From NCBI RefSeq assembly GCF_963921235.1, contig NC_086108.1, positions 51,896,001 through 51,956,000 on the forward strand: DNA of 60,000 bases. Direction: 5' to 3'. This DNA comes from Mobula hypostoma. Its lineage: Eukaryota. A model generated the notes under the pieces. The model was given only the letters and a program-made list of their open reading frames with translations. It did no database searches and had not been told where the DNA came from. Below, in pieces: positions 7,909 through 40,356 of the stretch. The position numbers were made by a program, and so were the translations under genes. Position 1 is the first letter of the stretch. Every line of letters starts with the position of its first letter.

Positions 7909-9510
7909 GTAAGTATTCTTCTAATGCTGATTTTGATGTCTGTGGCAGAAACCTTAGACCAAGTATGCCTGCCCGGGGATGAGCCCCTGAGAGGCAGTAG
8001 CTGCTTGATTATTAGATTAATGTGCCTGTGTGTATCAGTTACACAATATGCTCAGATCATTGTGAAAAGATGCTGAATAATTGATGGAGATGGAGCTGCA
8101 AACATTACTTTCAAAATTTTCTTTCTGAGTGATCCTGACTTCTGACTTATTCTTCCTTTGTTCCTTTTTAAATGTTACTCACTTGGGACTAGGCATATGA
8201 TACACACCAGTAAGGAATGCTCAGCAAGCCATTTCCTGCTGTGATTTTGTTCTGGATCACATGCCCTTCCAAGAATGGTTCTTGATGTTAAATTTTGTAG
8301 TTATAAAATCTCAAGTGTTTTTTGGCTTGTGAAAAGTAATGGGTAATTAATAGCCAATTGGAAAATAAAAGCAGTCATTAGTCCATTCCAGAACTCCCCA
8401 TACAAACAAGAATTTCATTTGGTAGCAATCCATTCAACTGATGGGGACTGTCTTGTGCTGTGAACACAGGCTGAAATGCTGTGAGACAAAATATGCTGTA
8501 ATCACAGTTAATATGATGATGGTACTGTACTCATGTACAACAGTTCCTGTTGTCAGCCAGGCAGGGCTGCACACTTGAGCTCTACAGAAGTAGCAGAATC
8601 AGAAAGATTTATCAATAGCAGTCTTAGTAGAAAGGGCTAAATCGGCCATTTCATTTATGCAGCTTATCTCCAGGAGAAGAATGCGAATGCTGCAAGTGAC
8701 TTTCTGAAACTGACTAGAGCAGAGAATAGATCTTGAGGGGAAGGGAAGGCTTGCTAGTCAACATATATTCAGCACTGGGCAAAAACTGCTCTCAGCACAA
8801 TCTTAAACAGCTTTTTAACAGCTGTATGATTCAAGGACATTTTTTACAAACAGTACAGGGGGCAAAGTGTCACTGCTGAACAAACAAATTAAGACTGGTT
8901 CCAATTAGATAATTTTGAGGGCAATTTAGGTTTTCTGCTGGTGGTTGGCAAGTTCCATAATGGTGTGATATAGCCCGAGTAACTAATAATTGAGAGCAAT
9001 TGATGTTCTCATCCAGGTAGTATGTACTTTACATAATCAAAGCTTCTGCAAAGAAAGCATAAAGCTAATAAATGTGATTTGCTATTATTGCAAAAGTTTA
9101 AAATTTGTGTAAGGTAAGCATTTAAAATATGCTTTAGTCTTTTTTTTTTGGGGGGGGGAATGATTATGACCAGTTCTGAGTTCTGATTCTTTGATCTGTT
9201 GCAGCAATTTTGAGAACCCTCTAAATCTACATGTGAAATTTTACTTAAATATCATGCTTCTCAGTACATGAAGTCACAGTTGTAATTATTTTTTGAAAGG
9301 GGTGTATGTAAGCCAATTAATCAGAAAAGATCTTTAGTATATCTTTGATTAAAATAGTTTTAAAACTTGGACTTAAATTTACGATGTGCCCTTTTTGAAT
9401 CTGAGTTTTGAATTTCAGGACTGAGGTAAAACTCATAAGAAGATATTGCAACACACATAAAAGTTGCTGGTGAACGCAGCAGGTCAGGCAGCATCTCTAG
9501 GAAGAGGTGC

Positions 9511-9546
9511 AGTCGACGTTTCAGGCCGAGACCCTTCGTCAGGACT
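9511..9546 (-). ncRNA. Minimal type I hammerhead ribozyme
   Basis: Minus strand reads AGTC-CTGACGA-AGG GTCTCGG CCT-GAAA-CGTC-GACT: CUGANGA and GAAA cores, stem I AGTC/GACT, stem II AGG/CCT, GUC cleavage triplet. Confidence 0.85.
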
Positions 9547-10365
9547 AACTGAAGGAAGAGTGAGTAAGGGATTTGAAAGTTGGAGGGGGAGGGGGAGATC
9601 CAAAATGATAGAAGACAGGAGGGGGAGGGATGGAGCCAAGAGCTGGACAGGTGATAGGCAAAAGGGATACGAGAGGATCATGGGACAGGAGGTCTGGGAA
9701 GAAAGACAAGGAGGTGGGGGAGGGACCCAGAGGATGGGCAAGGGGTATATTCAGAGGGACAGAGGGAGAAAAAGGAGAGTGAGAGAAAGTGTGTATAAAA
9801 ATAAGTAACAGATGGGGTACGAGGGGGAGGTGGGGCATTAGCGGAAGTTAGAGAAGTCGATGTTCATGCCATCAGTTTGGAGGCTACCCAGACGGAATAT
9901 AAGGTGTTGTTCCTCCAACCTGAGTGTGGCTTCATCTTTACAGTAGAGGAGGCCGTGGATAGACATGTCAGAATGGGATGTGGAATTAAAATGTGTGGCC
10001 ACTGGGAGATCCTGCTTATATTCCGTCTGGGTAGCCTCCAACCTGATGGCATGAACATCAACTTCTCTAACTTCCGCTAATGTCCCACCTCCCCCTCGTA
10101 CCCCATCTGTTACTTATTTTTACACACACATTCTTTCTCTCACTCTCCTTTTTCTCCCTTCCCTCTGAATATACCCCTTGCCCATCCTCTGGGTCCCCCC
10201 CCCACCTCCTTGTCTTTCTTCCCGGACCTCCGGTCCCATGATCCTCTCGTATCCCTTTTGCCTATCACCTGTCCAGCTCTTGGCTCCATCCCTCCCCCTC
10301 CTATCATTTTGGATCTCCCCCTCCCCCTCCAACTTTCAAATCCCTTACTCACTCTTCCTTTAGTT

Positions 10366-10401
10366 AGTTCTGACGAAGGGTCTCAGCCTGAAACGTCGAC
10401 T
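10366..10401 (+). ncRNA. Minimal type I hammerhead ribozyme
   Basis: AGTT-CTGACGA-AGG GTCTCAG CCT-GAAA-CGTC-GACT; core intact, one U-G wobble in stem I. Confidence 0.8.
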
Positions 10402-12404
10402 GCACCTCTTCCTAGAGATGCTGCCTGGTCTGCTGCGTTCACCGGCAACTTTTATGTGTGTTGCTTGAATTTCCAGCATCTGGAGAATTCCTGTTGTTTG
10501 CGTAAGAAAATTTTGCAATACTGTATCTCCCACGTTTCAAGAGGTTGTTATGAAAGACATTAAGGTAGCATTTGAGAGGCAAAGAAGGGAAATCCAGAAC
10601 TTAAGGGCTTTGGCACTTGAAGGTACGACCATCAGATATGCAACAATTAAATCTGGAATGACTAGGAGTTTAGAATTTAAGATATGTTGGAATCTCAGAG
10701 GCTTACGGAGCTGATGAAATTACAAAGATTAGGCTGGAGAGACCATGGAAAGATTTGAAAGCTGGGATAAGAAATATAAAATTGTGATACGGCTTATGTA
10801 AGGCCCTGTATGGATTAGCAAACAAGAATTATGGTAAATCCGGGGACTTATTTTCAGTTATGACATAAACTACGAACATTTCAATGACTTAAAGTTTATG
10901 GTGAGTAGAATGGAGCAGGGCAAACAGTTGGAATAATTGAGACAGTGAAAATACCATGCAGTTCTTGATCCTCCTAATAGTTTGTGTCTCAGAGTTAGAT
11001 TCTTGCTGCACAGTATCGTAATCCTCCTTCCTCACCTTCTCGATCATGTATCACCCTCAGAGTAAAGTTTTTTTTTATATAAGTTTAAAAATAGTTTTCA
11101 CTTGAAATTTGCCGTGTTTAGTAAGTAATATTCCATACTCACTCTGCCTATAAGATTTAAGACTTTATGTACTGCAATGAGCTCACTTCCCTTTAAGTAA
11201 TCCATCATCTGCCTGTATATTTTGCCATCCAGGCATCAGATTTGAACCCTTTTTATGGAGATCTGCCAAACCTATTATAAATTTCTCTTTGAGGTATTTA
11301 AGTGCATTCTAGTGATGGAGACAGCTCTAAAGTTTGATGCTTTCTGTTCTTGCCAGTAAACATCAGTCCTTTCTTGCCAGTAAAAATACTTCTCAGGACC
11401 TATTCTTAGTCCTGACTGCAGACATAAATCAAAAACAAAATAAAACTGCCCTTTTATTCAACACACTGAATTATGATTTGGTTTCATTAAAGTCAATTTA
11501 AGAAAGATTTTAAACTTGGCTAGGAATTAAAATATTACACAAGTGCAAAGCAGGACAGAGAACTTGTGTTCTGCTCCTAGTTTGGACCACTCTTTTATTT
11601 GTAGGAAATATTTAAAAGATCTATAGGAAGTCTTGCCTGGGGACAACACAACAGACTGGAAACCCAGGAAAACAGAGTCTACATTTAATGGATCATTCAC
11701 TTTAATGGTTGGAATATTGTAGGCAATACCTCAGAAATGCTAATTCAAACATAGTCCAGTTCCAAGGAACTTCAATGAACACATATGTAAATGTGCACTA
11801 AAAATAAAAAAAAGTGACTTTTGGATTCTACCAATGCAAACCCTAATCTAATTTACCAGAGATAATTCAATAACCTGAAAATGAACTGGCATTCATCATG
11901 CTTTGTAATATTGCAATAATGAACTACATTAAATTGCATTTAAACCTTTTATTATATTTTGGCTTTCCTGGCCAGAAGCAATGTGAGCACTTTATCTAAT
12001 TGCTTCCTGTGCATGATGACTGGAAGGCACACTGCAGTTTTACAGAGGCCAAGGGAGAATTAAGAGCTGCATTACCAGACATTTAAACTGGTGCATATAT
12101 CTTGGTTAATACAATCGTTTAAAAAAACGTTCTTTGTTTCCAAGTAGACTGTATGGCAAGTTCCTTTGTTTGAAGAATATTAGTGAACTAGGAACTGTCT
12201 GAAGAGATCTGACTACTTCCATATTTTTTTTCAGAGCCATTTGCAACTAGCTATTTGAATTCCTAAACATTGAGTGTCTAATCGAACATAATTGCTAGGA
12301 TACCATGTCAAACAAAATAACACTGTTTCTACTTCAGAAGTAATTTATTCACTGACAATTATTTCAGAGAAAACCATCTAATAAAATAGCAACCTAATAA
12401 TCAG

Positions 12405-13430
12405 CAAAACATATGTCAGCTGTTTTTTTATCGATTACAGCTCGGCTTTCAACACCATTATCCCCTCACAGCTAATCAACAAGCTTCAAAAGCTGGGTCT
12501 CTGTACCTCCAGCAACTGCATTCTTGACTTCCTTATTGGGAGACCACAGTCTGTGCAGATCGGTAGTAACATCTCCTTGCTGACAATCGCCATAGGCAAC
12601 CTGAAGTATGTGCACTTTGCCGGCTGCTCTACTTGCTCTACGCCTGTGTGGCTAGACACAGCTCAAACAACATCTACCAATTCATTGATGGTACTACTCT
12701 TGTTGACAGAATTTTATGAGGTTATGAGGAGGTGTACGTGAGTGAGATAGATTGATTGGTTGAGTGGTATTGCAACAACAACCTGGCAATCAAGACCAAG
12801 GAATTGATTGTAGACTGAAGGGAGTGAAATCTGAGGAGCACACACTAGTCCTCATTGAGGGATCAGCAGTGGAATGGCTGAGAAGCTTCAAGTTCCTGGG
12901 TGTCATCATCTTAGGTGATCGACTGTATCCTGGGCCCAACACATTAATGTATTCATGAAGACTCTATTAGGAATTTGGGGAGATTTGGGGTGTCAACAAA
13001 AACTCTTGCATATTCATACAGTGGAGAGCACTTTGACTGGTTATATCACAGCCTGGTATGGAGTCTCCCATGCACAGCATCGCAAAAGACTGCAGAGGAT
13101 TATAGACTCAGCACAGTCTTCCCCACCTTTTGAAGACACTTTCAAGAAGGCACCATCCATCATTAAAGGCTCTCACTATCCAGGACATTCTCTCATCATG
13201 TTACTACCATAGGGAAGGAAGTACAGGAACCTGAAAACCCACATTCAATGTTTTAAGAAGAACTTCTTCTCTGCCAACAGATTCCTGAACCGTCCATGAA
13301 CACTACCTTGTTAATTGTCTCTTGCACTTTTTATTTATTGTAAAAAGGTAATTTTTATATCCTGCACTGTACTGCTGCTGCAAAACAATACAATTCACTG
13401 ACATATGCAAGGGTTAGTACACCTGATTCT
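12405..13430 (+). mobile_element. Rex1/Babar-like LINE, decayed RT and 3' part
   Basis: Reads [35 protein letters not shown], then FKFLGV and VESTLTGYITAWYG..RKRLQRI. Boundaries approximate. Confidence 0.75.
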
Positions 13431-13809
13431 GGTTTTGATATTCTTTCTACAAAAGTTACATATGCCCATAGGCAAGTGATTCTTGGTTTGTACTTGAGTT
13501 AACTAAATCTGAGTTGTGATGTAGTAAGGTTCTACGTTTGGATCTAAAGACTACTGAAATATTGAGGGTGGAATCTATTTTCTAAGTCCCATCCAATGAC
13601 TTGCTGGAAAATATTTATTTCGGGATAGCGAGTGAGGCCTAGAATAAGTAGTTCTCCGCTGTCAAAAAGCTTGATGTTTCTCAGCATCCAGATTCACAGT
13701 TAGCCAACTTGCTAGATAGTGGTTGGGAGATAGGTGATAAGTGTCCAATTTATTTCACCAACTCTAATGTCAGGTTAGCCCTTTAGGAAGGGAATGGTCT
13801 AAACAGGGA

Positions 13810-14085
13810 ATAGAACATAATAGTGTGTGCCTTTTGGACCATAGTGTTGTGCCAGCCTTTTAACCTAGTCCAAGATCATTCTAAGCCTTCCTTCATTTCT
13901 CTTTTATCCATTTGCTTATCTAAGAGTATCTTAAATGACTAATGTATACTGTATGCCTCTACCACCACCCCAGCAGCGATTTCCATGCACCCAGCGCTTT
14001 TAACCTACCTCTCACAACCCTCCTATACTTACTTCCAATCACCTTAAAATTATGACCTTTAGAATTAGTCATTGCTGTCCTCAGA
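13810..14085 (-). mobile_element. CR1 LINE 3' fragment, old
   Basis: ATAGAACATA tail and a minus-strand KGHNFKVIGSKYR..W motif typical of CR1 ORF2 ends. Confidence 0.55.
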
Positions 14086-15649
14086 AAACAGTGATTATTT
14101 TTTGTAAAATTGAACTTGTGCTGACTCAGTTTGCCAACATGCTTCAACATTTAATCCTCTACACATTCAGCATAATAAACCCATCTCACTGGCTGTTTTT
14201 GGAAAAATATTATTGTGCTCTTTCTCATTGTTTTGATTGAAGTGGTGGAACTAAATATGTCTCCTGAGTGTAACTTGTCTTTTAGAATTTAAAATAATTC
14301 CCTTGTATTATTGCTGCCAAATGCAGTACAGAATTATTGTTAATCTTCATATCTCTCTAACATAACTTCTGTGTGATGTCACAACAGCCGTGCACTCAAC
14401 ATGCGACATTAATGATAATAAAGCTGATTCTCTATTCTGTATTATGTTCAGTGAAATATTTTGACCCTGAAGATTATATGACGTTGCTTATGCCACCAAA
14501 GTTAGTACACACTGAGAAACACCTTGCAATTGCTCTCTTTTGTTCTTCAACCACTGTTATGGTAAAGGGAAATATCCAAGATGCTGGAAAGTTTGTGCCT
14601 AATTGTAATGGATGACTAAACCTTGCCCATTTGACGTGTTGAATGATGCATGCACAGTTCTTCCTCTAACCTCATTATGAGGTCTTTACAATCTAGTGAA
14701 TAACAACCACATTGTTGGAGGTCTGGTGTATGTTTAGGGGTAATGGCTGTGTGAGTATGTGGCATCATTTGAAGAACTGATTCAAGCCGTTCCAGTATCT
14801 ATTAAAGGAGGTGCTTGGTGCCTGATGTGGGTCATGAAAAGTCTTGTGAGATTACTGGAGGCCATGGAAGATCACATTGAGAAGTGGGGATGCAGATTTA
14901 AAAATTATCCTGAGGGAATTATTTTCAGTGTTATGGTGTATATAACTATAATGGCTTAGAAACATAGTCATGGAATTGAGAAGATAACATACTGTACAAA
15001 GTTATGCCACGAGTGCTGTCCCAAATGTGGGACAACTTGCAAAAAAATGTATTGGTTTCCCATTTGTCATCTAAGTCAGTGAATATTTACGTCACACTTT
15101 TCAGTAACAACTTCTTTGCAGTCCCACAGGATCAAAGATGATTTGTTTCACTATTGTGTGGGTGTTCTGGCTTGGCTAATGACATCATTGTGAGAACCCA
15201 TAGACTCTTCTACAGACGGAGCAGGAGTTACCTGAACAGATGGATCAGGTAGTCTTTGTGAAAGATGTTATGCTCTTTTTTGGCCACTGACGCAGGCCTT
15301 AATATGTTCCTGATACATGGACTTGAAATTCTCAATACCAACCTGAGAATGCGATCTCTACCATGAGCAGCCATGGGAGCCAATGACGATTGTGAATTTC
15401 TCTGAGGGAGCATTGAATATATCCTTGAATCCTTTCCACCTTCCACCTGGAACCTGACAGCTCAGAGGAGTGGGTCTGGTTTGGGAGTCTGGTGTCAAGC
15501 ATCTGTTCAGTGTGGTCTGCCCAAAGTAGACAACTAAGTGTAAGCCATGCCTCAGTCCTGCGGGTGCTGGCCAAGGAGATTTACTCATCCTTCCATTGAG
15601 CTTAAAGAATCTTGGCTGGAGCATGTTTCAGTATCTATCAACAATCTAG

Positions 15650-15930
15650 CAATTAAGAAAGGAAAAAGCAGTTAATGTTTTGGGGCGACATCCTTCATCA
15701 AGACTGGAAAGGAAGGGGGAAGAATCCAGAATAAGAAGGTGGGGAGTGGAATGAGTACAAGCTGGCAGGTGACAAGTGAGACTGGATGAATAAAGATGGG
15801 TCAGTGGGGGAGGGCAATGAAGTAAGTAACTAGAAGGTGATGGGTGGAAGAGCTCAAGGGTTAAAGAAGAAGGAATCTGACAGGAGAGGATAGTGGACCA
15901 TAGGAGAAAGAGAAGGAGGAAGGGCACTAG
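15650..15930 (-). mobile_element. Penelope-like 3' end remnant with decayed hammerhead
   Basis: Minus strand CCAGTCTTGATGAAGG..AAAACATTAACTG next to a purine-rich block similar to those at 24030 and 29960. Confidence 0.6.
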
Positions 15931-16803: not shown

Positions 16804-17270
16804 CACTCAGTGGCCACTTTATTAGGTGCACCTGCTCTTTAATGCAGATATCTAATCAGCCAATCATGTAGCAGCAACTCAATGCAGAAATGCATGCAGA
16901 TGGGGTCAAGAGGTTCAGTTGATGGTCGGATCAGATGTGAGAATGGGAATGATTGTTGGTGTCAGACAGGGTGGTTTGAGTATTTTAGAAACTACTGATC
17001 TGAGATTTCCACACACAACATTTTCTAGAGTTTACAGAGAATCATACGAAAAAACAAAATAAAACAGCCAGAGAGTGGCAGTTCTGTGGGTTAGAACACC
17101 TTGTTAATGCAGGAGGTCAGAGGAGAATGGCCAGACTGGTCCAAGTTGCCAGGAATGTGACAGTAACTCAGATAAACATGCATTACAAAAGTAGTGTGTA
17201 GAAGAGCATCTCTGAAGGCACGACATGTTGAATCTTGAAGTTTATGGACTACAGCAACAAAAGACCACAA
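16804..17270 (+). mobile_element. Short Tc1-derived element (third Tc1 family)
   Basis: Starts TA|CACTCAGTGGCCACTTTATTAGG and matches the inverted copy at 26350-26692. Confidence 0.7.
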
Positions 17271-17289
17271 ACACCCCGAAATACAAAAT

Positions 17290-19904: not shown

Positions 19905-20650
19905 ACCAGCTTGCATTTTGGGAAGTTAAACCAGGGCAAGATATACAGAGTTAAATGTCAGAGCCTTAGAGAGTATTGTAGAAAAGGGAGACGAAAGGGT
20001 GCAAGTACATAGTTCCTTGAATATGACAACACAGGTAGACATGGTGAGAGACCTTTCCACAGTTGCCTTCATCAGTTAAGATATTGTGTTTGAAGAGTTT
20101 GGATATAATGTTATAGCCATATAGGACGTTGGTGAGACTTGGAGTATTGTGTGCAGTTATGGTCACCTAGCTACGATGCTATGATTGATGTCATTGAAGT
20201 GCATAGAGTGCAGTAAAGTATAGCACCAGAACTGGAGTGCTTGAATTACAAGGAGAGACTGGATAGGCTGAGACAATTTTTTTCCCCTGGAGCAGAGGGA
20301 CCTAAAGGTTGACCTTATAAAGGTAAAAAAATCATGAGGGGCATGGATAAGTGGATGATCAGTTTTCCTAAGGTAAGGGAGTATAAAGCTAGATGACATA
20401 GGTTGAAGATGAAAGGAGAAAGACTGAAAGGGGACTTGAGCATATGAAATGTGCTGCCAGAAGAGATGGTAGAGATGGGCATAATTACAACATTTAAAAG
20501 ACATTTAGACAGATGCATGGATAGGAAATGTTTAGAAGGACATGGGCCAAACTAGGAGAGTTGGACTAGCTCAGGTAGGCAACTTGGTTGGCATGGACAG
20601 ATTGGGTCAAAGGGCCTATTTCAGTGCTGCATAATTCTATAAATCTATTA
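19905..20650 (+). mobile_element. CR1 LINE 3' part
   Basis: GGAGTATTGTGTGCAGTTATGGTCACC (EYCVQxWSP motif) and a 3' tail GGGCCTATTTCAGTGCTG..TTCTAT. Confidence 0.75.
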
Positions 20651-21467
20651 AAGTATACAAAGAATCCTTTGTATATTAAAGTATACAAGAATCCCTTGCA
20701 GATTAATCCCTTGTATATTAAAGTATACAAGAATCCCATGTAGATTAAGGTATACAAGAATCCCTTGTAATTACTCCCTTGTAGATTAAAGTATACAAAA
20801 ATCCCATGTAGATTAAAGTATACAAGAATCCCTTGTAATTAATCCCTTGTATATTAAAGTATATAAGAATCCCTTGCAGATTAATCCCTTGTATATTAAA
20901 GTATACAAGAATCCCTTGCAGATTAATCCCTTGTATATTAAAGTATACAAGAATCCCATGTAGATTAAAGTATACAAGAATCCCTTGTAATTAATCCCTT
21001 GCAGATTAAAGTATACAAGAATCCCTTGCAGATTAATCCCTTGTATATTAAAGTATACAAGAATCCCATGTAGATTAAAGTATACAAGAATCCCTTGTAA
21101 TTAATCCCTTGCAGATTAAAGTATACAAGAATCCCTTGCAGATTAATCCCCTGTATATTAAAGTATACAAGAATCCCATGTAGATTAAAGTATACAAGAA
21201 TCCCTTGTAATTAATCCCTTGTATATTAAAGTATACAAGAATCCCTTGCAGATTAATCCCTTGTATATTAAAGTATACAAGAATCCCTTGCAGATTAATC
21301 CCTTGTATATTAAAGTATACAAGAATCCCATGTAGATTAAAGTATACAAGAATCCCTTGTAATTAATCCCTTGTAGATTAAAGTATACAAGAATCCCTTG
21401 CAGATTAATCCCTTGTATATTAAAGTATACAAGAATCCCTTGCAGGTTAATCCCTTGTATATTAAAG

Positions 21468-22648: not shown

Positions 22649-22969
22649 TATTAAAGTATACAAGAATCTCTTGCAGGTTAATCCCTTGTATATCAAAGTA
22701 TACAAGAATCCCTTGCAGATTAATCCCTTGTATATTAAAGTATACAAGAATCCCTTACAGAAGATGGCTCTGTTCAAACCTGCAGTTCACCTGCCATTCT
22801 TTCAAACATTAACTTCTCCCTTTATCCATCAGATTCTCTTTATATCAAGTGTTTCCAACCTGGGGTCCATTGACTTCTTGCTTAATGGTATTGCTCCATG
22901 GCATAAAAAAGGTTAGGACCCCTGTTTTAAGTGAATTCTATTTGAGTAAGATAAATGATAGAAGCAAAG

Positions 22970-26692: not shown

Positions 26693-28619
26693 TAGTTGCT
26701 GAAACCACAGAGTTATTGGTCAAAAGAGAAAGTAGAGAATTTTATGTATGTTAATGAAACTATGCTTGATCTGTTGAGCATTTCCAGCATTCTTCTGGTT
26801 TTGGGTCTTTGCAAAAGCTCTGATCTGTAATTCAAAGCTCTTATGTTGTTCCTTTCTTTGTGTTTTTGCTCTAACAGCTCTTATTAATCTGTCAACCAGG
26901 CAGTGAATAACCATAGTAATCCCAGCCTAATCCTATCAAGGATATTCCATTCTTCTCTCTATCCTTCACTCACCTGATCTGCAATTTAAACCTAACGTTT
27001 TCTCATTGTTACATTCTGATGAATAGTCTTGATCTGAAATCTAAAGCCTATTTTTTATGTATCACAGATTCAGCTTGACCTACTGAATGTTTCCATAATT
27101 TTATGTATTTACTTCAGTAAACTATGGGTAGTAGTTAACAAACACAGCTTTCAAAGTGGTGAAAACAAGATGGTGGAGGAACCCAGCTGGTCAGGCAGCA
27201 TCTGTGGAGGGAAATGGACAGTGGTTGTTTTGGGTGAAGACCCTTCATCTGGATTCATAAAGAGCTTACAAGAACAACATTGTAAGAAGATAAAACTGCT
27301 TTGTTAGGACATGCATGGTATTTAGAATATAATGCAAGAAGAGAATGATAACTGTAGAATGAATGTAAGTGACATGGAATTTTATTTTACTGGAACACTA
27401 ATGAGTTTACAATAGACCAATTGGTTCATGCATTTTTAAGTAAAACCCAGTTCACCTGCTTAAAGAATGGACAATAAAGCTACTAATACTTTCTTTATAT
27501 TGCAGGGACTACCTCAATGAAGACAGTGGCATACCTACCAAAGGTCCTGTGACAAGTAAGTAGATACAGCTTGTGTTTTAAGTCAGGTTTCATCAGTGGG
27601 ATACTGCCTCTAAACAAACTATTTGAACTAGTGAAAGTCAGCCAATATTGCCAGTCTGAGGTTAAATATTCGATTGTATGTTCTGAGCTTGGAACCTCAT
27701 CAACTGGACGCATAAGAAACAAATCCATCCAGGGTGTAAATCTGCAATTCTGTTTCTCATTATTTAGTACAACCATATAAAGTTAAAATTGTCTTCTAGA
27801 GAGAGATCCCCATTACATGAACATATACTCCATTAATAAAAGTGCAGTATCTTACATCTTACTATCTATTGGTATCCGGTGCAAGGATCAACCATCATGT
27901 GGGGAAGATTGATGATAAACCAAGTATATCTTCAAATATATAAAATATCAAAATAATTGATTGCAAGAAATAAAATGCAACAGTTAATTTGTTTTCATAA
28001 TGTTCCAGTGCACACCGCATGCTGCACACATAGCAGCAAATCACACAGCTCTGTCTGTGGGAAGATCAAGAACAGCAGTGACACGGAGGGAATAATGTCC
28101 TATTATAATTGCCTGCTGATCACTGCCAACAGTTATGCGGAGAGTCCTGGTGAAGCCCCGTTGGAAGTTTCTTAGCAGTATCCCTCTATTCACCCCACAG
28201 ACTCAACCAAAGAAACTGAATCTAGAGGCCAGAGCTGCCCCCTTCAGCCTCATTGTTTATGCTGATCTTGTCCTGGTTGGCAGCATGCATCCAGTTTTGT
28301 GTAGAGAATCCCAGACAGCACAGGGAAATTGAAGTTCTAATTTTTAGGGTTTGGGTATTGCTGGAGACTGTGCATTTATCACCTGTCTCTAATTAAATGT
28401 GGGAAGTGGTGGTGAGCTATTGCAAATTTACAAAACTTGTTGGTGCATGATTTGAAAGGGAACAAGGAGGTATTAAAGCCCTTGTTTTTTTAGGCCTATT
28501 ACCTCACAATGTCACCTGGGAACTAAGTGTATTCCATGTACAGCAAAGAGGAAATAAAGGGCGTTGGTCACCTGAAAAAGTGTGGTTTAAATGCATGAAT
28601 CCACAGGAACTACAGTATG

Positions 28620-28985: not shown

Positions 28986-29874
28986 AACTTTAGTGGCATG
29001 TGTGACCTTTACCTTCTGATGATCAAATCTAAAAGAAATAAGCGATTCTGATCTTTGGTAAAATCAGAATAAATGTCCCAAAAGGCAGTGATTGTAGATT
29101 GGAAATATTTTAAAATGGTATTTATTTTAAAAAAATTAAGGTAATGGCAGATATGGAGAAATGTAGAGAGAGTGAATTTAAACGATTGTTATACCTGATG
29201 GAGCAGGTTGAATGCTCTTTGCTTGTCCTAGTATATTTGCATGCACAAAGGAAGATGGAAAATTATTGAAAGGAAAATATTTTAATAAAGCTGTGAGTTG
29301 TACAATCTGATACAATTTTAATAAAATAGGTTTATAAAATATTATAATGTTTGCAATTTAAATAAAGCTGGTAAATTTGTCATTTGGGGATATCAAATAT
29401 TTTATATTGCTTATTTTAGTGATCCCTGGAGAGTGCATGCATTAAAAAAATATAAATATCTGATATTAACCAGATTGAGCATTGAAACTTGCATGCCACA
29501 TACTATGATTTTTTTAAGGGGTAATTATTTTCACAATTTTGGTCTTGTGTCACGTTAAGTATATTTTGTCTACTTCTGTATTATCACATTATAGCAGTTG
29601 TGACGTGTGAAGTTCCATTGTAATAATAGGCAACCTTCGTACAATATATTGAAATGAAAGTGACTACTAAACAGTTTAATTATCTTATGACTCCAGTTCT
29701 TGAATTAACTCATTTGATTAAACATGGATGCCATTAGTAGATGTTTCTTTTAATGAGTATTTCCAGTTTTTTTTGGCTAAGAAGCCTGCATAGTACACCA
29801 AGTTTGGCACATTTCCCTTTCATTTGTGAGATGTAGCTTGAACTCCTGTTCTGGGATATGACAGCCAAAAATGA

Positions 29875-30431
29875 ATAAACTGCAGATGCTGGAAATCCAG
29901 AAAAACTCGCACCAGATGCCAGAGAAACTCGGGTCATGCAGCAGCTGTGGAAATTAACAAACAGTTGACGTTTCGAACCAAAACCCTTCATCAGGACTGG
30001 AAAAGAAGGGGGAAGATGTCAGAATATGAAATTGGGGAAAGGGAAGGAGGACAAGCTAGAAGGTGATGATGGGTGAAGCCAGGTGGGTGGCAGAGCGGGA
30101 ATGAAATGAGAAGCTGAGAGGTGATAGGTGGAGAAAGTAAAGGACTGGAAAAGAAGGAATCTGATTGGAGAGGAGAGTGGACTATGGGAGAAAGGGAAGA
30201 AGGAGGGGCACCCAGCTTCCTACTTCCTTGGCTGCTCCCCCACCCACCTGGCTTCAACTGTCACCTTTTATATTGGTCTCCTTCCCCTCACCCCCCACCT
30301 TCTTAGACTGGAATCTCCCCCCTTCCTTTCCAGTCCTGATGAAAGTTCTTGACCTGATACATTGACTGTTTTTTCATGTTCAAAACTGCTGTCTGACCAG
30401 CTGAGTTCCTCCAGCATTTTGAGTGTGTTGA
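29875..30431. mobile_element. Older palindromic Penelope-like insertion P5 (tail on the left)
   Basis: The left arm starts with the tail CTGCAGATGCTGGAAATCC and holds a minus-strand hammerhead (29962-29998, CTGATGA..GAAACGTC). Orientation flips near 30210. The right arm has a decayed hammerhead (30332-30368) and ends at GTGTGTTG. Confidence 0.75.
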
Positions 30432-30879
30432 GCCGGAACTGAAGTTATTTTCAGCATTCTCAACCTACTTCCTAGTGAATGTGATGCCAATGCGTGTTGC
30501 TCCAAGACTTTGATATACATCTGCAACTCTTCCTCTCATCATCTCACACACCTTGAGACATGCTAGAAACTCTTTCAGGCATCAATGCTGAGTAGAGGAG
30601 CTTTTAAAGCATATATTCTGAGGAATCTTTTCTCATTCATATTTGTCCAGCTTACATGGTTGCTTTCATGAGTCTAGATGTGAGGAACTCCTTGCATTTG
30701 GTCCAAGTTCCCTTTTTCAACATTGTAGGATTTGTCACAAGCAGTACTTAAACTAGATGCTTGGAAAATTAGAAACTTGCTATTTCAAGGCAAATATGGT
30801 ACTTAAATCCCAATGTCAACAGAAACCCAGAACAAATCATATTAAATGATGGTGGAAGCTCCTATTCTCTTGATAACTA

Positions 30880-32483
30880 CAAACCCCATTTCCAGAAAAG
30901 TTGGGATATTTTCCAAAATGCAATAAAACCAAAAATCTGTGATATGTTAATTCACATGAATCTTTATTTAACTGACAAAAGTACAAAGAAAAGATTTTCA
31001 ATAGTTTTACTGACCAACTTAATTGTATTTTGTAAATATACACAAATTTAGAATTTGATGGCTGCAACACACTCAACAAGAGTTGAGACAGAGTTAAAAT
31101 AAGATTGAAAAGTGCACAGAATATTCAGGTAACACCGATTTGGAAGACTTCACATTAGGCAGGCTAATTGGTAGCAGCTGAGGTATCATGACTGGGTGTA
31201 AAAGTAGCGTCCATCAAAGGCTCAGTCTTTGCAAGCAAGGATGGGTCGTGGCTCACCCCTTTGTGCCAAAATTCGTGAGAGAATTGTTAGTCAGTTCAAA
31301 AGGAACATTTCTCAATGCAAGATTGCAGAGAATTTGGGTCTTTCAACATCTACAGTACATGATATTGTGAAAAGATTCAGAGAATTCAGAGACATCTCAG
31401 TGCATAAAAGGCAAGGTCAGAAACCACTGTTGAATGCGCGTAATCTTCAAGTCCTCAGGTGGCACTGCCTAAGAAACCGTCATGCTACTGTGACAATTAT
31501 CGCCACCTGGGCTCGGGAGTACTTCAGAAAACCATTGTCACTCAACACAGTCCGTCGCTGCATCCAGAAATGCAACTTAAAACTGTATTATGCAAGGAGG
31601 AAGCCATACATCAACTCTATGCAGAAACGCCAGCGAGTTCTCTGGGTCCGAGCTCATCTCAGATGGACTGAAAGACTGTGGAACCGTGTGCTGTGGTCAG
31701 ATGAGTCCACATTTCAACTAGTTTTCGGAAAAAACAGGCGTCGAGTTCTCCGTGCCAAAGATGAAAACGACCATCCAGATTGTTATCAGCGAAAGGTGCC
31801 AAAGCCAGCATCTGTGATGGTATGGGGGTGCATCAGTGCCCACGGCATGGGTGAGTTGCATGTATGTGAAGGTACCATTGACTCTGAGGTGTATATTAGG
31901 ATTTTAGAGAGACATATCTTGCCATCAAGGCGACGTCTCTTCCTGGGACGCCCACGCTTATTTCAGCAGGACAATGCCAGACCACATTCTTCACGGGCTA
32001 CAACAGCGTGGCTTTGTAGACACAGAGTGCGTGTGTTTGACTGGCCTGCTGCCAGTCCAGATCTATCTCCTATTGAAAATGTATGGCGCATCATGAAGAG
32101 GAGAATCAGACAACGGAGACCACAGACTGTTGAGCAGCTGAAGTCTTGTATCAAGCAAGAATGGACAAAATTTCCAATTGCAAATCTATGACAATTAGTA
32201 TCCTCAGTTCCAAAACGATTATAAAGTGTTATTAAAAGGAAATGTGGTGTAACACAATGGTAAACATGCCTCTGTCCTAACTTTTGTTGAGTGTGTTGCA
32301 ACCATCAAATTCTAAATTTGTGTATGTTTACAAAATACAATTAAGTTGGTAAGTAAAACTACTGAAAATCTTTTTTTTGTACTTTTGTCAGTTAAATAAA
32401 GGTTCACGTGAATTAACATATCATAGATTTTTGTTTTTATTGCATTTTGGAAAATATCCCAACTTTTCTGGAAATGGGGTTTG
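30880..32483 (+). mobile_element. Tc1 transposon copy B, full length (1604 bp)
   Basis: TA duplication at 30878-30879 and 32484-32485; ~200-bp TIRs CAAACCCCATTTCCAGAAAAGTTGGGATA. Confidence 0.96.
31241..32263 (+). pseudogene. Tc1 DD34E transposase, 340 codons with two late in-frame stops
   Basis: ATG at 31241 (MGRGSPL), HTH region, WSDES, FQQDNARPH and PDLSPIE with 34 residues between D and E. TGA at 32189 and TAA near 32222 precede the natural end ..TQW*. Confidence 0.92.
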
Positions 32484-32799
32484 TACACAAACCTGATCCT
32501 GATGATATCATGGCAAGATGTGATATCCTTATCCAGCTCTCCTACTAACTTTGCTCTCCAGGAACATCTGAATTTTAACATCTCATATTGTACATAACAT
32601 TACCTGTGAAATGTAAACTGTTACAAGGCAGGAGCTGGGGAGAGTAGATTGGGAGCAGTTGTTAATGGTAAAGACAACATCTGATGTGTGAGTCATTTAA
32701 AGATAGTTGGTCGGATTTCAGGACTAACATGTTCCTATAAGGAAGGAAAGCAAAGGTGGCGAGATTTGGGAATTATGTATGATGAGAGATGTTGCAAAT

Positions 32800-33560
32800 T
32801 TAGTCAAAAACAAAAAGTATATGTTAGGTTAAGGTACTTGAATAGGACAGAAACCTGGAGAAGTGCAAAAGAAGCAGGAAAGAAACTAAACAGAGAATCA
32901 GGAAGGCTACATGGGGTTGTGAAATGACATTGTTGTGTAAGATTAACGAGAATCCCAAGACATTTTATACATACTAAAAGCAGGGGGTAAACTGTACTTA
33001 ACATAAGTATTCACCAAAGAGGGCATGGAGGATAATAGGATCGGGGGGACAATGCTGATGTTCTAGGGCATGTTGCTACCAAGGAGCACACATCAAAGTT
33101 GCTGGTGAACGCAGCAGGCCAGGCAGCATCTGTAGGAAGAGGTGCAGTCGACGTTTCAGGCCGAGACCCTTTGTCAGGACCTGACGAAGGGTCTCGGCCT
33201 GAAACGTCGACTGCACCTCTTGACGAAGAGTCTCGGCCTGAAACGTCGACTGCACCTCTTCCTACAGATGCTGCCTGGCCTGCTGCGTTCACCAGCAACT
33301 TTGATGTGTGTTGCTTGAATTTCCAGCATCTGCAGAATTCCTGTTTGATACCAAGGAGAGGAGGTTTTGGATCTCTTGAAGAACATTAAGGTGGGTAACT
33401 TTCTAGGGCTTGATGGGATCTATCACAAGTTATCAAGAGAAATGAGAGGAGATTGCTGGGACCTTGACAGCAGTCTTTGTTTTCACTTCAGCACTGGTGA
33501 TGTTCCAAAGGATTGAAAAATAGCCAATATTGTTTCTCTATTTTAATACGAGCAATGGAA
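32800..33560 (+). mobile_element. CR1 ORF2 fragment, old, interrupted by P2
   Basis: GAGGTTTTGGATCTCTTGAAGAACATTAAGGTG..GATGGGATCTAT reads as EVLDLLKNIKV..DGIY, the CR1 pre-RT region. Confidence 0.6.
33087..33344. mobile_element. Mini palindromic Penelope-like insertion P2 with three hammerhead motifs
   Basis: Symmetry centre at 33179 (GTCAGG-A-CCTGAC). TSD TTGCTACCAAGGAG (33073-33086) / TTGATACCAAGGAG (33345-33358). The right arm has a 39-bp tandem duplication. Confidence 0.9.
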
Positions 33561-33594
33561 GCAAACTTGGAAATCATAGGTAATGGCGATCTGG

Positions 33595-33950
33595 AGCTCT
33601 TGTTTGCAAGCCATTTTAATTTCCCACCCCATTTCCACACTGAACTGTCAGTCCTTAGTGTACACTGCCAGAGTATGCGGGTAAACACAAACTGAGGAAC
33701 AGCACTCATATTCCACCTGGGTTGCCTATAAACCAAGGGCTTAAATGTGAATTCTCCAATTTCAGTGTAACTTGCTCTCCCTCAGTCCCTTTTCCCTCTC
33801 CTCATCTACCCAGTTCTTCCTACACACACACAAACTCTCCCAGCCATGATTACCCTGTTTCTTACTCTTCCTTCACATACTACTGCCCATCACCTACCGA
33901 CTCCTCCCACTGCTATTTTGTCTGAATGGATGGTGAAATGTTGATGCATT
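33595..33950 (+). mobile_element. Old Penelope-like GIY-YIG C-terminal remnant
   Basis: FASHFNFPPHFHTELSVL..EEQH is similar to the C-terminus in P3. Confidence 0.65.
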
Positions 33951-34397
33951 GTTGCTTTTTTAGGCGGTCCTGCGGGTTTGAGGATGGCTTTGTTCCATTC
34001 CAGTTCTTTGGCTGCTGAGCTGACAAATGATACGAATGTTTAACCACCTGTGGGGAAGGAAGGGCTTAATGAGTGGAGCACTCAATAAACACTTGGATTT
34101 TGAGATATTCTGGTGAAGGGACTTGAGGTTAACAGTACCACTCCAAATGCTGCTTCTCCAATTTGAATAGTCATGGGTCAGGGATAAGCATGAGTCAGTA
34201 AAAATATTACACCTTTTCAAGGAGGTGTAGAGCAGTGGTCCCCAACCACCGGGTCACAAAGCATGTGCTACCGGGCCGCAAGGAAACGATATGATTTAGC
34301 AATATGAAATGTTATGAGTCAGCTGCACCTTTCCTCATTCCCTGTCACGCCCACTATTGAACTTGAACGCATGCGAGGTCATTGGTGACCCAAGACG

Positions 34398-35034
34398 CAG
34401 ATTAGATTAGATTATGAGGACACGCAGTCCCCTTTTATTGTCATTTAGTAATGCATGCATTAAGAAATGATACAATATTCCTCCGGTGTGATATCACAGA
34501 AACACAGGACAGACCAAGACTGAAAACTAACAAAAACCACATAATTATAACATATAGTTACAACAGTGCAACAATACCATAACTTAATGAAGAACAGGCC
34601 ATGGGCACAGTAAAAAAAAAAGTCCAAAGTCTCTCGAAAGTCCCACATCTCACGCATACGGGAGAAGGAAGAAAACTCTCCCTGCCATGCCCGACCACAG
34701 TCCGACTCTAAGTCATCGGAAAACTTTGAGCTCTGGTCAGCCCTCCGACACCAAGTACCGAGCACCATCTCTGCCGAACGCTTCGACCCCAGCCTCGCTC
34801 ACCAGCAACAGGCAAAGCTGGGGATTTTGGGGCCTTCCCTCCGAAGATTCTCGATCGTACAGTAGCAGCGGCAGCAAACCGGGCACTTCAGAAATTTCTC
34901 CAGATGTTCCTCTGTGCTTCTCACGTCTGTCTCTATCAAATCAGAATTGTGCACGGTGTCCTACTTACAAATACGATATCATTTCACCGGAGAGCTGCGC
35001 GCGTTGCACTGCCATCTTCTCCTCCCGCCATGAC
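34398..35034 (-). mobile_element. Short non-coding retroposon with (AATCT)n tail
   Basis: 13-bp TSD GTGACCCAAGACG (34385-34397, 35035-35047). Minus strand starts with a GC-rich GGCGGGAGGAGAAGATGGC and ends with AATAAA..AATCTAATCTAATCT. Confidence 0.75.
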
Positions 35035-35458
35035 GTGACCCAAGACGTGCAAAGGAATGGGTCCATAACCCATTTGTGAATGTCCCCAGTGAATCATCCT
35101 TGACAGCATGGGAAAAAGATCAACCCCTCGAGCTTGCAAATGATGGTGGGCTGAAAAGTATGTTTGACATAACATCTCTGCCGGCATTCTGGATCAAAGT
35201 CAAGGTTGAATATCCTGAGAAAGCCACAAAAGCACTGAAAACATTGCTTCCATTTCTAACATCATATCTCTGAAGCAGAGTTTTCGGCAATGAATGCAAT
35301 GAAAATCACGGAATAGACTGGACAGAAGCGATTGCCGATTGCGTCGCCTCTGATCTGGGCCGACATTTACGTGCTGGGCAGCACCTAATCAATTAGCTTC
35401 ACACATCAAAGTTGCTGGTGAACGCAGCAGGCCAGGCAGCATCTATAGGAAGAGACGC

Positions 35459-35494
35459 AGTCGACGTTTCAGGCCGAGACCCTTCGTCAGGACT
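35459..35494 (-). ncRNA. Minimal type I hammerhead ribozyme
   Basis: Minus strand AGTCCTGACGAAGGGTCTCGGCCTGAAACGTCGACT, fully intact core. Confidence 0.87.
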
Positions 35495-35784
35495 AACTGA
35501 AGGAAGAGTGAGTAAGGGATTTGAAAGCTGGAGGGGGGGGGAGATGCAAAATGATAGGAGAAGACAGGAGGGGGAGGGATAGAGCCGAGAGCTGGACAGG
35601 TGATGGGCAGAAGGGGATACGAGAGGATCATGGGACAGGAGGTCCGGGAAGAAAGCCGGGGGGGGGTGACCCAGAGGATGGGCAAGAGGTATATTCAGAG
35701 GGACAGAGGGAGAAAAAGGAGAGTGAGAGAAAGAATGTGTGCATAAAAAAGAGTAACAGATGGGGTACGAGGGGGAGGTGGGGC

Positions 35785-36350
35785 CTAGCGGAAGTTAGAG
35801 AAGTCAATGTTCATGCCATCAGGTTGGAGGCTACCCATACGGAATATAAGGTGTTGTTCCTCCAACCTGAGTGTGGCTTCATCTTTACAGTAGAGGAGGC
35901 CGTGGATAGACATGTCAGAATGGGAATGGGATGTGGAATTAAAATGTGTGGCCACTGGGAGATCCTGCTTTCTCTGGCGGACAGAGCGTAGATGTTCAGC
36001 AAAGCGGTCTCCCAGTCTGCGTCGGGTCTCACCAATATATAAAAGGCCACATCGGGAGCACCGGACGCAGTATATCACCCCAGTCGACTCACAGGTGAAG
36101 TGATGCCTCACCTGGAAGGACTGTTTGGGGCCCTGAATGGTGGTAAGGGAGGAAGTGTAAGGGCATGTGTAGCACTTGTTCCGCTTACACAGATAAGTGC
36201 CAGGAGGGAGATCAGTGGGGAGGGATGGGGGGGACGAATGGACAAGGGAGTTGTGTAGGGAGCGATCTCTGCGGAATGCAGAGAGAGGGGGGGAGGGAAA
36301 GATATGCTTAGTGGTGGGATCCCGTTGGAGGTGGCGGAAGTTACGGAGAA
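35785..36350 (-). pseudogene. Penelope-like ORF 3' part: GIY-YIG endonuclease domain (5'-truncated)
   Basis: CKRNKCYTC..FTCESTGVIYCVRCSRCGLLYIGETRRRLGDRFAEH..VATHF..EEQHLI..GMN. The first ~21 aa of the listed ORF come from the inverted arm. Confidence 0.92.
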
Positions 36351-36729
36351 ACAGGTTGGAGGAACAACACCTTATATTCCGTATGGGTAGCCTCCAACCT
36401 GATGGCATGAACATTGACTTCTCTAACTTCCGCTAGGCCCCACCTCCCCCTCGTACCCCATCTGTTACTCTTTTTTATGCACACATTCTTTCTCTCACTC
36501 TCCTTTTTCTCCCTCTGTCCCTCTGAATATACCTCTTGCCCATCCTCTGGGTCACCCCCCCACCGTCTTTCTTCCCGGACCTCCTGTCCCATGATCCTCT
36601 CGTATCCCCTTCTGCCTATCACCTGTCCAGCTCTCGGCTCTATCCCTCCCCCTCCTGTCTTCTCCTATCATTTTGCATCTCCCCCCCCCCCCCCAGCTTT
36701 CAAATCCCTTACTCACTCTTCCTTCAGTT

Positions 36730-36765
36730 AGTCCTGACGAAGGGTCTCGGCCTGAAACGTCGACT
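36730..36765 (+). ncRNA. Minimal type I hammerhead ribozyme
   Basis: AGTCCTGACGAAGGGTCTCGGCCTGAAACGTCGACT; predicted cleavage 3' of C36761. Confidence 0.87.
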
Positions 36766-37849
36766 GCGTCTCTTCCTATAGATGCTGCCTGGCCTGCTGC
36801 GTTCACCAGCAACTTTGATGTGTGTTGCTTGAATTTCCAGCATCTGCAGAATTCCTGTTGTAATCAATTAGCTTGTTTATTTCGGCTTTATTCTTAAAGA
36901 TGTGCTGGGTGCGTTCTGGCCACCGCTGCACTCTTCGCAGCCCGGAGCTTTGGGACCACTGTTATAATTAACTTTTCACTATATTCATGCGAGGAAAATA
37001 TGCGCTCTGTGTTTAATGTTAAATTGGTTAGGTAAACCCCTTTAGAAACGAAATTGAGTTTATTAGCCACTTATAAGTGACTTACAGTTGACTTATCACC
37101 TATATTCCAGTCGTGATTAACACCCCCCCCCCCCCGCAACCCCGGTTGGCCGGTCCGCAAGAATATTGTCAAAGTTAAACCGTTTTGCGGTGCAAAAAAG
37201 GTTGGGTACCCCTGGTGTAGAGAACATCCTTAAGTCATTTCCTCGGTCCACCTAGTAATCTTCTGCCAAAATTGGAGTTTGAAGTATGTCAAGTGTCTGG
37301 TTCTAGGCACAGGGATGACATAACCTACCTATTAAAGAAGATAGAATATAGTCCAGGAATATTTATTCACTTATTCTGAAAATGGATTGGGAGAATTTTG
37401 TGGAAATATCATAGATGGTATGTCTCCAAGGGGACTGCCAACCCGACATCCGTCCACAGATCTTCTCCGCAGAGCAGTCTGATTTGGATTCTAGCTCCTG
37501 CTGCTGACTCTTAATTTACTGCCTAAAACCTCTAACTCTCTCATCCTTGTCTTCTCCCCCCACCACTAGTTTCACCATGCTGCTCCCATCCAAAACCATC
37601 TCAAAGAACCTAGAAGACAATGAAGTCTAAGCACGATCTTGAAGGAGACCATAGCTTAGCGCCATCTTGACTGGAAGTCATGTAATAACATGTAATTCTG
37701 CCTGTTATTATCAATTTCAGCAACAAACATCACTAATAGGTGAAAATGGTGTTTGCAAATCTATTTTAAAAAGTTGGGCATAAGTGAAATGAAAAGTAAC
37801 AAAGATTTTATTGAATTAAGAAACAACAGGAAGAAACGAGAACAACCAA

Positions 37850-38425
37850 AGTTTGTCTAACCTTTCCTTGTAGCTAAAACACTCTAATTTCAGGCAGCAT
37901 TGTGGTAAAACTCTTCTGCACTATCTCCATTGTCTCCACATCATTTCTGTCATGGGGTGACCAGAACTGCATGCAGTACTCCAAGTATGTTCTGACTGAA
38001 GTTTTACATGGTTGCAGCATGGCTTCCTTACTCTTAAACTTAACAGCCCTACATTTAAAAGCAAGCATGTCATACACCTTCTTTACCACCTTCTCCACCA
38101 CATTATCCACCTACTTAGCCACCTTCAGTGAACTATGAACTTGGAAGTACCTCAGTATACCTCACTGAGGATTCCCCTGTACCTCAATGCTATTAAGGGG
38201 TCATTCTCCTTTCATTTGATCTCCTAAGGTGCAACACCTCAAACTTGTCTAGATATAATTCCACCTGCTATTTCTCTGTCCATATCTGTAACTGATCTAT
38301 ATCCCACTGTCGTCTTTGATAGTCCTTTACACTGTCCACAACTCCACCAAACTTGGTGTCGTCAGCAAACTTGTGAATCCACCCATCTACATTTTCACCT
38401 AAATCATTGAGATATATCACTAACA
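37850..38425 (-). mobile_element. CR1 RT / C-terminal fragment
   Basis: IYLNDL..IHKFADDTKFGGVV and YLEYCMQFWSP motifs. Confidence 0.8.
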
Positions 38426-38674
38426 TATGGTCGGCAGCATATGTTGGCCTTTTTCGCCAGCTAACATAAGGTCCACAAATCTCATCCGAAGACAAATTCT
38501 TACCGCAGGATTCTGAAATGTCTGTTATTTTATTTGTTTTGTGTGATCTGTTTGATGAACATGTAATAAACTGATCAATGTGATGATTGAGTTATTGTAT
38601 CTACTACTGAGATATATACTGTGTTTTAGATGCTGCTTTGGAATGTAACAAATCTGTTAAGCCATACTCATTTG

Positions 38675-39150
38675 TAAAGATTCAAAGTACATTTATTATC
38701 AAAGTACGTATGCAGTGTACAACCCTGAAATTTGTCTTTTCAACAGTCTGTCATGACACAAAGAAAAACCATGGAACCAACCCATTGAAAGAAAAATATC
38801 AAACATCAAACCCCACTCCCCCCTGCACACAAAAAGATTGTGTAAACAGCAACAAAAAAGTAAGCCAAAAAGCAAAATGCAAATTCAAAAGGCACATTTC
38901 AGTTCAGTTCAATTCAGCTCAGTGTTCAAATGCTCAGTGCTCAGACCACCCTGATTCAAATATCGACCAAAAGTCATAACAAAAAAAAGTGACCAGAACT
39001 AGAAATAGAAACATCATAAAAACTACACTCCGCCTCGATTAAACCTTGCTCCGTCACAGCACCATCCGCCGACAGCTTAGAGGGCAAGAGAGATCACTCG
39101 AGCACAAGGATCATCCCTCAGGAGCAGCAGGAGAGAGAGCGAGAGCGCTG
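38675..39150 (-). mobile_element. Non-LTR retroelement 3' end, family uncertain
   Basis: GATTCAAAGTACATTTATTATCAAAGTA carries a minus-strand AATAAA and short tail, followed by A-rich UTR-like sequence. Confidence 0.4.
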
Positions 39151-40145
39151 TTCAGGATGATTGAATTTGCTTTATAAATATAACATTTTTCAGTATGTAT
39201 TGTTCTGTCACTGGAGCACTGGATATAAAAAATCATTTTGAACCTATGTAACCTCTGGCTAAAAGAATAATTGGGACTGAATAGGAATTTTTGAAGTGAA
39301 GTAAACTGTCTTCAGCAGTTAGCTAAGACAGGCTCACTACCAGTTCTCCTTGGTTTGCAGAGAGACATTGGGAGTTTGATAACATTGTACGTTGTACCCT
39401 CGTTTGAGTTGGAGAAGGACTTGCCAATACGGACAGGAATGAATATCCATCTGTAATTAAGTCAGGGCCTAGCAAAGGGAATAATTGATAAGGACTGGAA
39501 AGTACATCCATCTGTAATTAAACCTTGATTTAGCAGACTTTCTAATCTAAGTAATTAAGTTTTGCACCAACAGACTTGGTGGACGTACCAGTTCTAATAA
39601 CATCTTGCAACAGTAATATATGGGGCTTATGTATATGTATAAATATACAGCTGTAACCTGACTAAGTGGGCCCACTTGTCAGATGGTGGCAGTACTTGCG
39701 TGCCTTCCCTTCGACAACTGGGTCTCAAACTCCTGCAGGACGGTGCACAATAAACTGTTATGACGATGAGAAGCTGGTCTCCCGAGTTTTATTCAGATTG
39801 GACTTTAAAAGTACTTTTGTTAGAAGTTGCCAGTTTAAAGCTGATCAAAAAAAGCAATGAATTTGAACTCAATTAATCTGTTAAGTGTGCTATGCCTATA
39901 AAAACTGTTGTATCATGTAAAGCCCCTATTTTTCACCATTGCCTATCAGACACTTCATCTGGTTTAACATTGATGTCATTTTGGCACTTTACAGGACTAT
40001 TCAGCCTGACTACCTTAACGACAACTAGAGGTAGATCATAAAAGTGGCCTTTTCAGGATTACCCACATCCCATGGGGGGAAAAAACTATCCCCTAAGGTC
40101 ACCTAACTAGCATAAAGTGCTGAGCCATGACACAAAACTAACAGT

Positions 40146-40337
40146 CGACACACACAATGCTGGAGGAGCTCAGCAGGCCAGGCAGCATCTATGGAAAAGA
40201 ATGAACAGTTGAGGTCTTGACCTGAAACGTCAACTATTTACTCTTTTCCATAGATGCTGCCTGGCCTGCTAAGTTCCTCCAGCGTTTCGTGTAGGTTGCT
40301 TGGATTTCTAGCATCTGCAGATTTTTCAAATTTGTGT
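40146..40337. mobile_element. Mini palindromic Penelope-like insertion P4
   Basis: GCTGGAGGAGCTCAGCAGGCCAGGCAGCATCTATGGAAAAGA is inverted to TCTTTTCCATAGATGCTGCCTGGCCTGCTAAGTTCCTCCAGC, with the tail on the right. TSD CACAAAACTAACAGT (40131-40145) / CACAGAACTAACAGT (40338-40352). Confidence 0.85.
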
Positions 40338-40356
40338 CACAGAACTAACAGTGATA

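Follow-up and report, generated by a model that had tools for sequence, protein, structure and literature searches.

Head-to-head insertions of a Penelope-like element with a tail on one arm only in a 60,000-nt window of Mobula hypostoma

Five short insertions in the genome of Mobula hypostoma consist each of two inverted arms of the same element, and they raise the question of how a unit with a tail at only one of its two ends is formed, and whether its arms came to the site in one event. The window, that is the whole stretch of DNA analysed, is 60,000 nt long and comprises positions 51,896,001-51,956,000 of the forward strand of NC_086108.1 (GCF_963921235.1). By self-comparison of the window and alignment of arm ends, five pairs designated as A to E were recognized, with inverted arms and 3' ends facing outward (Table 1), all of them where the initial annotation had placed head-to-head insertions. 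The tail is present on one arm only in 5/5 pairs, in agreement with what had been claimed, and the tail-less arms end at GTGTG followed by 0 to 4 nt. The tail is 34-43 nt long as measured in A, C, D, and E, while that of B is decayed and of similar length; the fixed short end described earlier was thus recovered, with a range somewhat wider than the shortfall of about 36-40 nt given there. A further pairing proposed by the automatic partner test, 27015-27086(+)/27258-27165(-), has tail-to-tail orientation and was not counted as head-to-head.

The form by which PLE insertions are recognized is an inverted 5'-truncated copy with a 30-40-bp tail at one end and a TSD. Here, the tail is one-sided in 5/5 units and a TSD was found in 4/5. 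The scores of the TSDs of A, C, D, and E were matched by 0.07-0.27% of 1491 random 40-nt pairs (p <= 0.003), which supports the four 14-18 bp candidates proposed before. The last 4 nt of the left TSD of A also match the continuation of the element. For B, a TSD was sought and none was found, the best match in the same random-pair test being 5 nt (p 0.72).

Table 1. Arms, hammerhead core motifs, and target-site duplications of the head-to-head pairs (positions in the window)
Feature	Position	Strand	Remark
A, tail-less (left) arm	9452-10017	-	carries GIY-YIG C-terminus; extends ~120 nt further 5' than partner
A, tail-bearing (right) arm	10015-10502	+	tail 42 nt; overlaps left arm by 3 nt, 10015-10017
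A, TSD	9436-9451/10503-10518	.	16 nt, 2 mismatches
B, tail-bearing arm	~29872-30212	-	old subfamily; outer end approximate
B, tail-less arm	30213-30430	+	71% identical to partner; without TSD
C, tail-less (left) arm	33087-33180	-	ends at 5' edge of hammerhead motif
C, additional ~40-nt hammerhead-core copy	33180-33221	+	putative backward template jump
C, tail-bearing (right) arm	33221-33344	+	tail 34-37 nt
C, TSD	33073-33086/33345-33358	.	14 nt, 1 mismatch
D, tail-less (left) arm	35400-36350	-	951 nt; 481 nt further 5' than partner
D, tail-bearing (right) arm	36352-36860	+	tail 36 nt; additional base at 36351, no microhomology
D, minimal hammerhead core motif	36734-36761	+	predicted cut after 36761
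D, TSD	35386-35399/36861-36874	.	14 nt, exact
E, tail-less (left) arm	40148-~40210	-	old subfamily; ends ~2 nt beyond predicted hammerhead cut
E, tail-bearing (right) arm	~40211-40337	+	tail 40-43 nt
E, TSD	40128-40145/40335-40352	.	18 nt, 2 mismatches; left side with 2 extra nt
Further core motif copies	35490-35463(-), 10370-10397(+), 9542-9515(-), 33181-33208(+), 29994-29967(-)

Judging by its sequence, the element belongs to the Penelope-like elements with a C-terminal GIY-YIG, is of the Neptune/Nematis type, and contains a minimal hammerhead motif. The left arm of D contains an open C-terminal ORF fragment at 35785-36348(-), which codes for 187 aa and terminates at a stop codon, with 385 nt between this codon and the short end. 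A GIY-YIG endonuclease (PF01541) was predicted on 35788-36348(-), immediately before this stop codon, with an E value of 6.8e-5, above the cut-off. Two Cys between the VIY and YIG motifs and His residues downstream were recognized by eye and fit the CCHH motif, whose two Cys between GIY and YIG are described as a canonical trait of C-terminal EN+ PLEs (PMC8557442). The endonuclease is preceded by a linker C-x4-C-x2-C at residues 55-63 of the ORF fragment. According to the same source, a CX2-5CxxC linker marks Neptune and Nematis and is missing in Penelope/Poseidon (PMC8557442), and with the linker present, this element does not fit the Penelope/Poseidon clade. In a protein search among longer proteins, 15 of 422 candidates matched, with ray and shark proteins as the most similar (93% identity in Mobula hypostoma and 83% in Hypanus sabinus; 57-93% among ray and shark relatives), and two weaker matches, P0012 and P0015, contain an RT (PF00078). 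The Penelope-like identity assigned initially fits the endonuclease, the ray and shark relatives, and the hammerhead motif. Every copy in the window has lost the RT by truncation, and the insertion products are dead on arrival because none contains it. A MITE or TIR DNA transposon, for which symmetric termini and a family-constant internal structure are the criterion, was rejected, as the termini are asymmetric by 34-43 nt and the junction is different in each pair.

Six arms contain the hammerhead core motif, and the cut predicted from it falls 63 nt ahead of the short end. A short fold of this putative hammerhead gives stems I and II with a z of -0.21. No hammerhead family was matched in Rfam, where nine matches up to E 5 were all below gathering scores; the best four, miRNA hairpin models aligned to palindromes or repeats, were considered generic and discarded. 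Min-HHRs have been reported for PLEs of the Neptune and Poseidon types in fish (PMC4209133). When the 3' end was folded as RNA, its stability did not exceed that of shuffles (z from -1.0 to +1.2). In A and D, the short end coincides with the border between the loop and the 3' stem of a small hairpin, an observation not counted as evidence.

Do the two arms of a pair belong together? In the young subfamily, they differ at 13/442 columns in A, 3/470 in D, and 2/90 in C. In the quartet of A and D arms with 433 shared columns, all 20 informative sites place the two arms of an insertion together and none unites arms of the same side, and quartets with C gave 2:0 and 3:0, again for grouping by insertion. 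Agreement of 20/20 sites argues that both arms of an insertion come from one template or source lineage, and later gene conversion could have contributed to it. The old arms of E are 84% identical to each other. The junctions are at -450/-571 with an overlap of 3 nt in A, at -470/-951 with an added base instead of an overlap in D, and at -90 to -94 with an overlap of 1 nt plus a repeat of the hammerhead core of about 40 nt in C, so that the junction microhomology is 3, 1, and 0 nt in A, C, and D, respectively. As the junctions differ among these three, the units were evidently made separately, each formed anew, and are not copies of one palindromic master. The tail-less arm is longer at its 5' side by 121 nt in A and by 481 nt in D, and the tail arm is the longer one in B and E; the unique spacer is held accordingly by the tail-less arm in A and D and by the tail arm in B and E.

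Contigs from four public runs were aligned to positions 32490-36351 only. A contig of organism C, a related species, matches the window as far as 33046 and again from 33348, a position within the right TSD of insertion C; in between it has 30 nt, where the window has 301 (33047-33347). It is therefore short by 271 nt, with 272 nt expected for insertion C plus one TSD. Insertion C is absent from organism C, and the empty orthologous site, of a kind that the initial annotation had proposed to look for, lacks both arms; it was read from the piece coordinates of one contig of one run, and this contig has two other length differences of 35-46 nt from the window. Contigs of organism B contain the tail junction of insertion C, its left junction being outside their coverage, and contigs of organism A contain both outer junctions, possibly from the source sample and so not independent. 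Insertion C appears to be older than the split of organisms A and B and younger than the split from organism C.

None of the contig records listed for 32490-36351 spans a whole palindrome. No site at which numerous molecules start or stop was listed for this region, and among the loose ends listed there were no pile-ups at the short end. Loose ends pile up behind 33342 (402, 391, and 314 records in X5, X6, and X9, respectively), which reflects a common tail variant running for about 10 nt and then T-rich flanks, and it is only a rough marker of the long end. In one run, 285,000 contigs matched a 3.9-kb stretch that holds the element and other repeats; very many young copies are present in the genome. 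A degenerate 24-nt pattern gave 0 matches in metagenome_contigs.

In the window, nhmmer found 22 hits. Eleven are in A to E, nine others (E<1e-3) belong to some 7 old loci at which no partner in head-to-head orientation is present, and two weak ones, with E of 0.46 and 8.7, were left out. Pairs were thus found at 3/3 loci of the young subfamily and at 5 of about 12 loci overall. The proposal that pairing is the dominant insertion mode over several ages holds for the young subfamily, but not for the overall count, in which B is moreover equivocal; partners of the old copies may have decayed below detection. The arms of B are 71% alike over 201 columns, and B-left and the unrelated copy G are 74% alike. 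As the B arms are no closer than unrelated copies, B is ambiguous as a single event and may represent two.

Each pair is probably the product of one event, in which both staggered nicks prime their own cDNA and the aborted cDNAs are joined. The target would be cut with a stagger of 14-18 nt, giving two 3' ends, and each of these would prime a cDNA, one at the tail end and the other 34-43 nt upstream. The template of both primings would be a single RNA, or else RNAs of the same source locus, and both cDNAs would then abort and be connected by end-joining with 0-3 nt of microhomology. From the geometry, the TSDs in 4/5 units, the empty site for insertion C, the arm variants common within an insertion, and the differing junctions, we infer a single event, including its staggering, priming, and joining. 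The two-primer reading put forward in the initial annotation fits these data and a published in vitro system (PMC11167929), although its mechanism is reached by inference and the architecture is not new.

That system is PAc, a Poseidon element of Anolis carolinensis (Frangieh et al. 2024), which nicked and extended both strands in vitro and for which a dimer was predicted and modelled (PMC11167929). Its RT starts at two internal sites with the tail between them, and the window pairs, which share its AT-rich targets, would resemble it in having two start sites that bound the tail and both target strands extended (PMC11167929). The main start site of PAc is 85-92 nt past the hammerhead cut, and the window ends are at 63 and 97-105 nt (PMC11167929). 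PAc differs in belonging to the Poseidon clade without the CX2-5CxxC linker, which the window element has, and its start region is AC-rich, while it is GU-rich here (PMC11167929). This difference in type counts against the transfer of the model, as does the sample of five pairs from one window. In the PAc report, no strand preference is described in vitro and the inverted unit is not derived from two starts (PMC11167929); the rule of one long and one short arm is unexplained by data without a strand difference in the start site.

An inversion within one TSD with cDNA primed from both target strands is also known from L1 twin priming (PMC12016303). There, however, the second start is variable and internal, the tail is poly(A), and the cDNAs overlap by a median of 12 bp where they overlap at all (PMC12016303), whereas in the window both arm starts lie in the last 40 nt or so of the element, and the arms have about 60-470 nt in common. 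With no poly(A), a fixed second start, and such overlap, the pairs do not fit an L1 twin-priming inversion, and the contrast with L1 drawn beforehand was fair (PMC12016303).

The single-event reading has its most serious competitor in an intermediate that primes itself or folds back, perhaps with an antisense template, and gives a symmetric inverted repeat, one tail of which is trimmed by the endonuclease at integration. This is less likely, but it covers the strict one-tail rule and the identical arms with no added assumptions. Fold-back with trimming was proposed in the Discussion of PMC3846280, where Arkhipova et al. (2013) prefer a model of self-priming with an antisense template; PMC8557442 attributes the tail to resolution by the EN, and the D. 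virilis EN requires the tail for recognition, as cited in PMC11167929. Against it, the tail ends of PAc coincide with RT start sites measured in vitro (PMC11167929), and the microhomology at the junctions of A, C, and D is weak for fold-back priming. The window data do not separate two-nick priming from fold-back with trimming. In a plainer variant, the tail-primed cDNA would simply fold onto itself and end about 36 nt short of the tail. The near-identical arms of the young copies would suit it, and so would B, E, and roughly C, in which the tail arm is longer or equal, but the surplus of 121 nt in A and 481 nt in D is on the tail-less arm and absent from the tail arm, and a cDNA primed at the short site would have no template for the tail. 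As the tail-less arm is the longer one in A and D, simple snap-back is excluded there unless one tail was removed later, and for the family it is very improbable.

If a second, independent insertion had hit the 5' end of an earlier one, or if a rearrangement had followed, this would account for B, with its missing TSD and arms 71% alike, and for the roughly 7 single-arm loci in the window. As an explanation of the set this is improbable, since a single TSD surrounds both arms in A, C, D, and E, the arms group by insertion 20:0, and the empty site for insertion C is without both arms. Least probable of all is an assembly or chimeric-read artefact. Palindromes are classic mis-assembly sites and the whole palindrome is in no listed contig, but the arms differ by 0.6-29%, TSDs surround four units, and both outer junctions of insertion C are in contigs of organism A (possibly the source sample) and its tail junction in those of organism B.

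The head-to-head architecture with one tail is itself known and textbook for PLEs (PMC3846280, PMC8557442), and the general PLE architecture is drawn in Fig. 2 of Craig et al. 2021 (PMC8557442), where we saw no count of how frequently the tail is one-sided. In Pen2a_Av and Pen2 derivatives of Adineta vaga, two pLTRs stand inverted and head-to-head, one of them ends in a 31-bp tail, and a single TSD encloses the whole unit (PMC3846280); this arrangement of pLTRs is the most frequent one (Arkhipova et al. 2013, PMC3846280). The window pairs share with them the inverted pLTRs, the one-sided tail, the unit within one TSD, and the frequent 5' truncation (PMC3846280), but TSDs are 8-10 bp there and 14-18 here (PMC3846280), and the units of the window are mostly short and RT-less. 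No published account was found that derives the inverted PLE unit from two start sites, in a search that had the 2005/2006 PLE reviews and Fig. S2 and File S1 of Frangieh et al. outside its scope; the latter two may display inverted pairs directly. The window adds a few small points: the TSDs are longer, the element is of the Neptune/Nematis type, and plain snap-back is excluded in A and D.

For PLE integration there are two published models, and counts of units with the tail on both, one, or neither arm, and of which arm is longer, would separate them. Under single-event, two-nick priming, the two-start rule known from Poseidon would apply also to an element of the Neptune/Nematis type, whose TSDs are longer. 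If each start were chosen independently, 5/5 mixed pairs would be expected with p of at most 0.03, and 4/4 without B with p of at most 0.06. Tentatively, the pairing of a long with a short arm may be obligatory: a dimeric RNP on a single RNA would occupy both start sites, with one subunit for each target strand, and the tail-primed subunit would displace the cDNA of the other. If so, two-ended priming would be the standard integration route of Neptune-type PLEs, and the genomic copies would be its direct readout.

The old Penelope-like element (PLE) copies B-left (the tail-bearing arm of head-to-head pair B), F, and G have a common 5' start position, and the sequences upstream diverge. Alignment of F with G stops at the same 5' point, independently of B. 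These copies may represent a non-autonomous unit of about 340 nt with a defined 5' end, or else a truncation hot spot.

Insertion C has three 5' stops, all no more than 4 nt apart, at the 5' edge of the hammerhead motif, and inside the insertion there is also a tandem repeat of about 40 nt of the hammerhead core. The left, tail-less arm of insertion E ends about 2 nt beyond the predicted hammerhead cut. Stalling of the reverse transcriptase at the predicted ribozyme is a possible source of the 5' stops in C and E.

Coordinates of the features in the window
Feature	Position	Strand
B-left, 5' start	30211	-
F, 5' start	24258	-
G, 5' start	15927	-
Hammerhead core repeat in C	33180-33221
Decayed older PLE piece	44356-44403	-
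Decayed older PLE piece	44630-44711	-
Decayed older PLE piece	45058-45456	-
Decayed older PLE piece	33567-33763	+
Tail-to-tail PLE-end fragment	27015-27086	+
Tail-to-tail PLE-end fragment	27258-27165	-
Old PLE end with tail	2610-2686 and 2947-3010
Inverted-repeat element, copy 1	5418-6666
Inverted-repeat element, copy 2	30876-32485
Tandem repeat array	20646-21467
Shorter related copy of array	22649-22761
AGATT-end element	34399-~35030

The decayed older PLE pieces include GIY-YIG remnants, and no inverted partners of these pieces were found in the window. Two old PLE-end fragments form a tail-to-tail pair, the reverse of the usual layout; its plus-strand member is a weak match (E 0.46). Another old PLE end with tail is apparently interrupted by an insertion of another repeat of about 260 nt.

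An element with terminal inverted repeats of about 215 nt, similar to a Tc1-type DNA transposon, is present in two copies about 95% identical, with copy 1 internally deleted. A tandem array is present as well. The high-copy element with an AGATT-repeat end sits within another repeat. Contigs that join the PLE tail (33342 or 33345) to 34399, four to six per run in X2, X5, and X6 and with side lengths of just 22-26 nt, hint at PLE insertion into repeats like the AGATT-end element.
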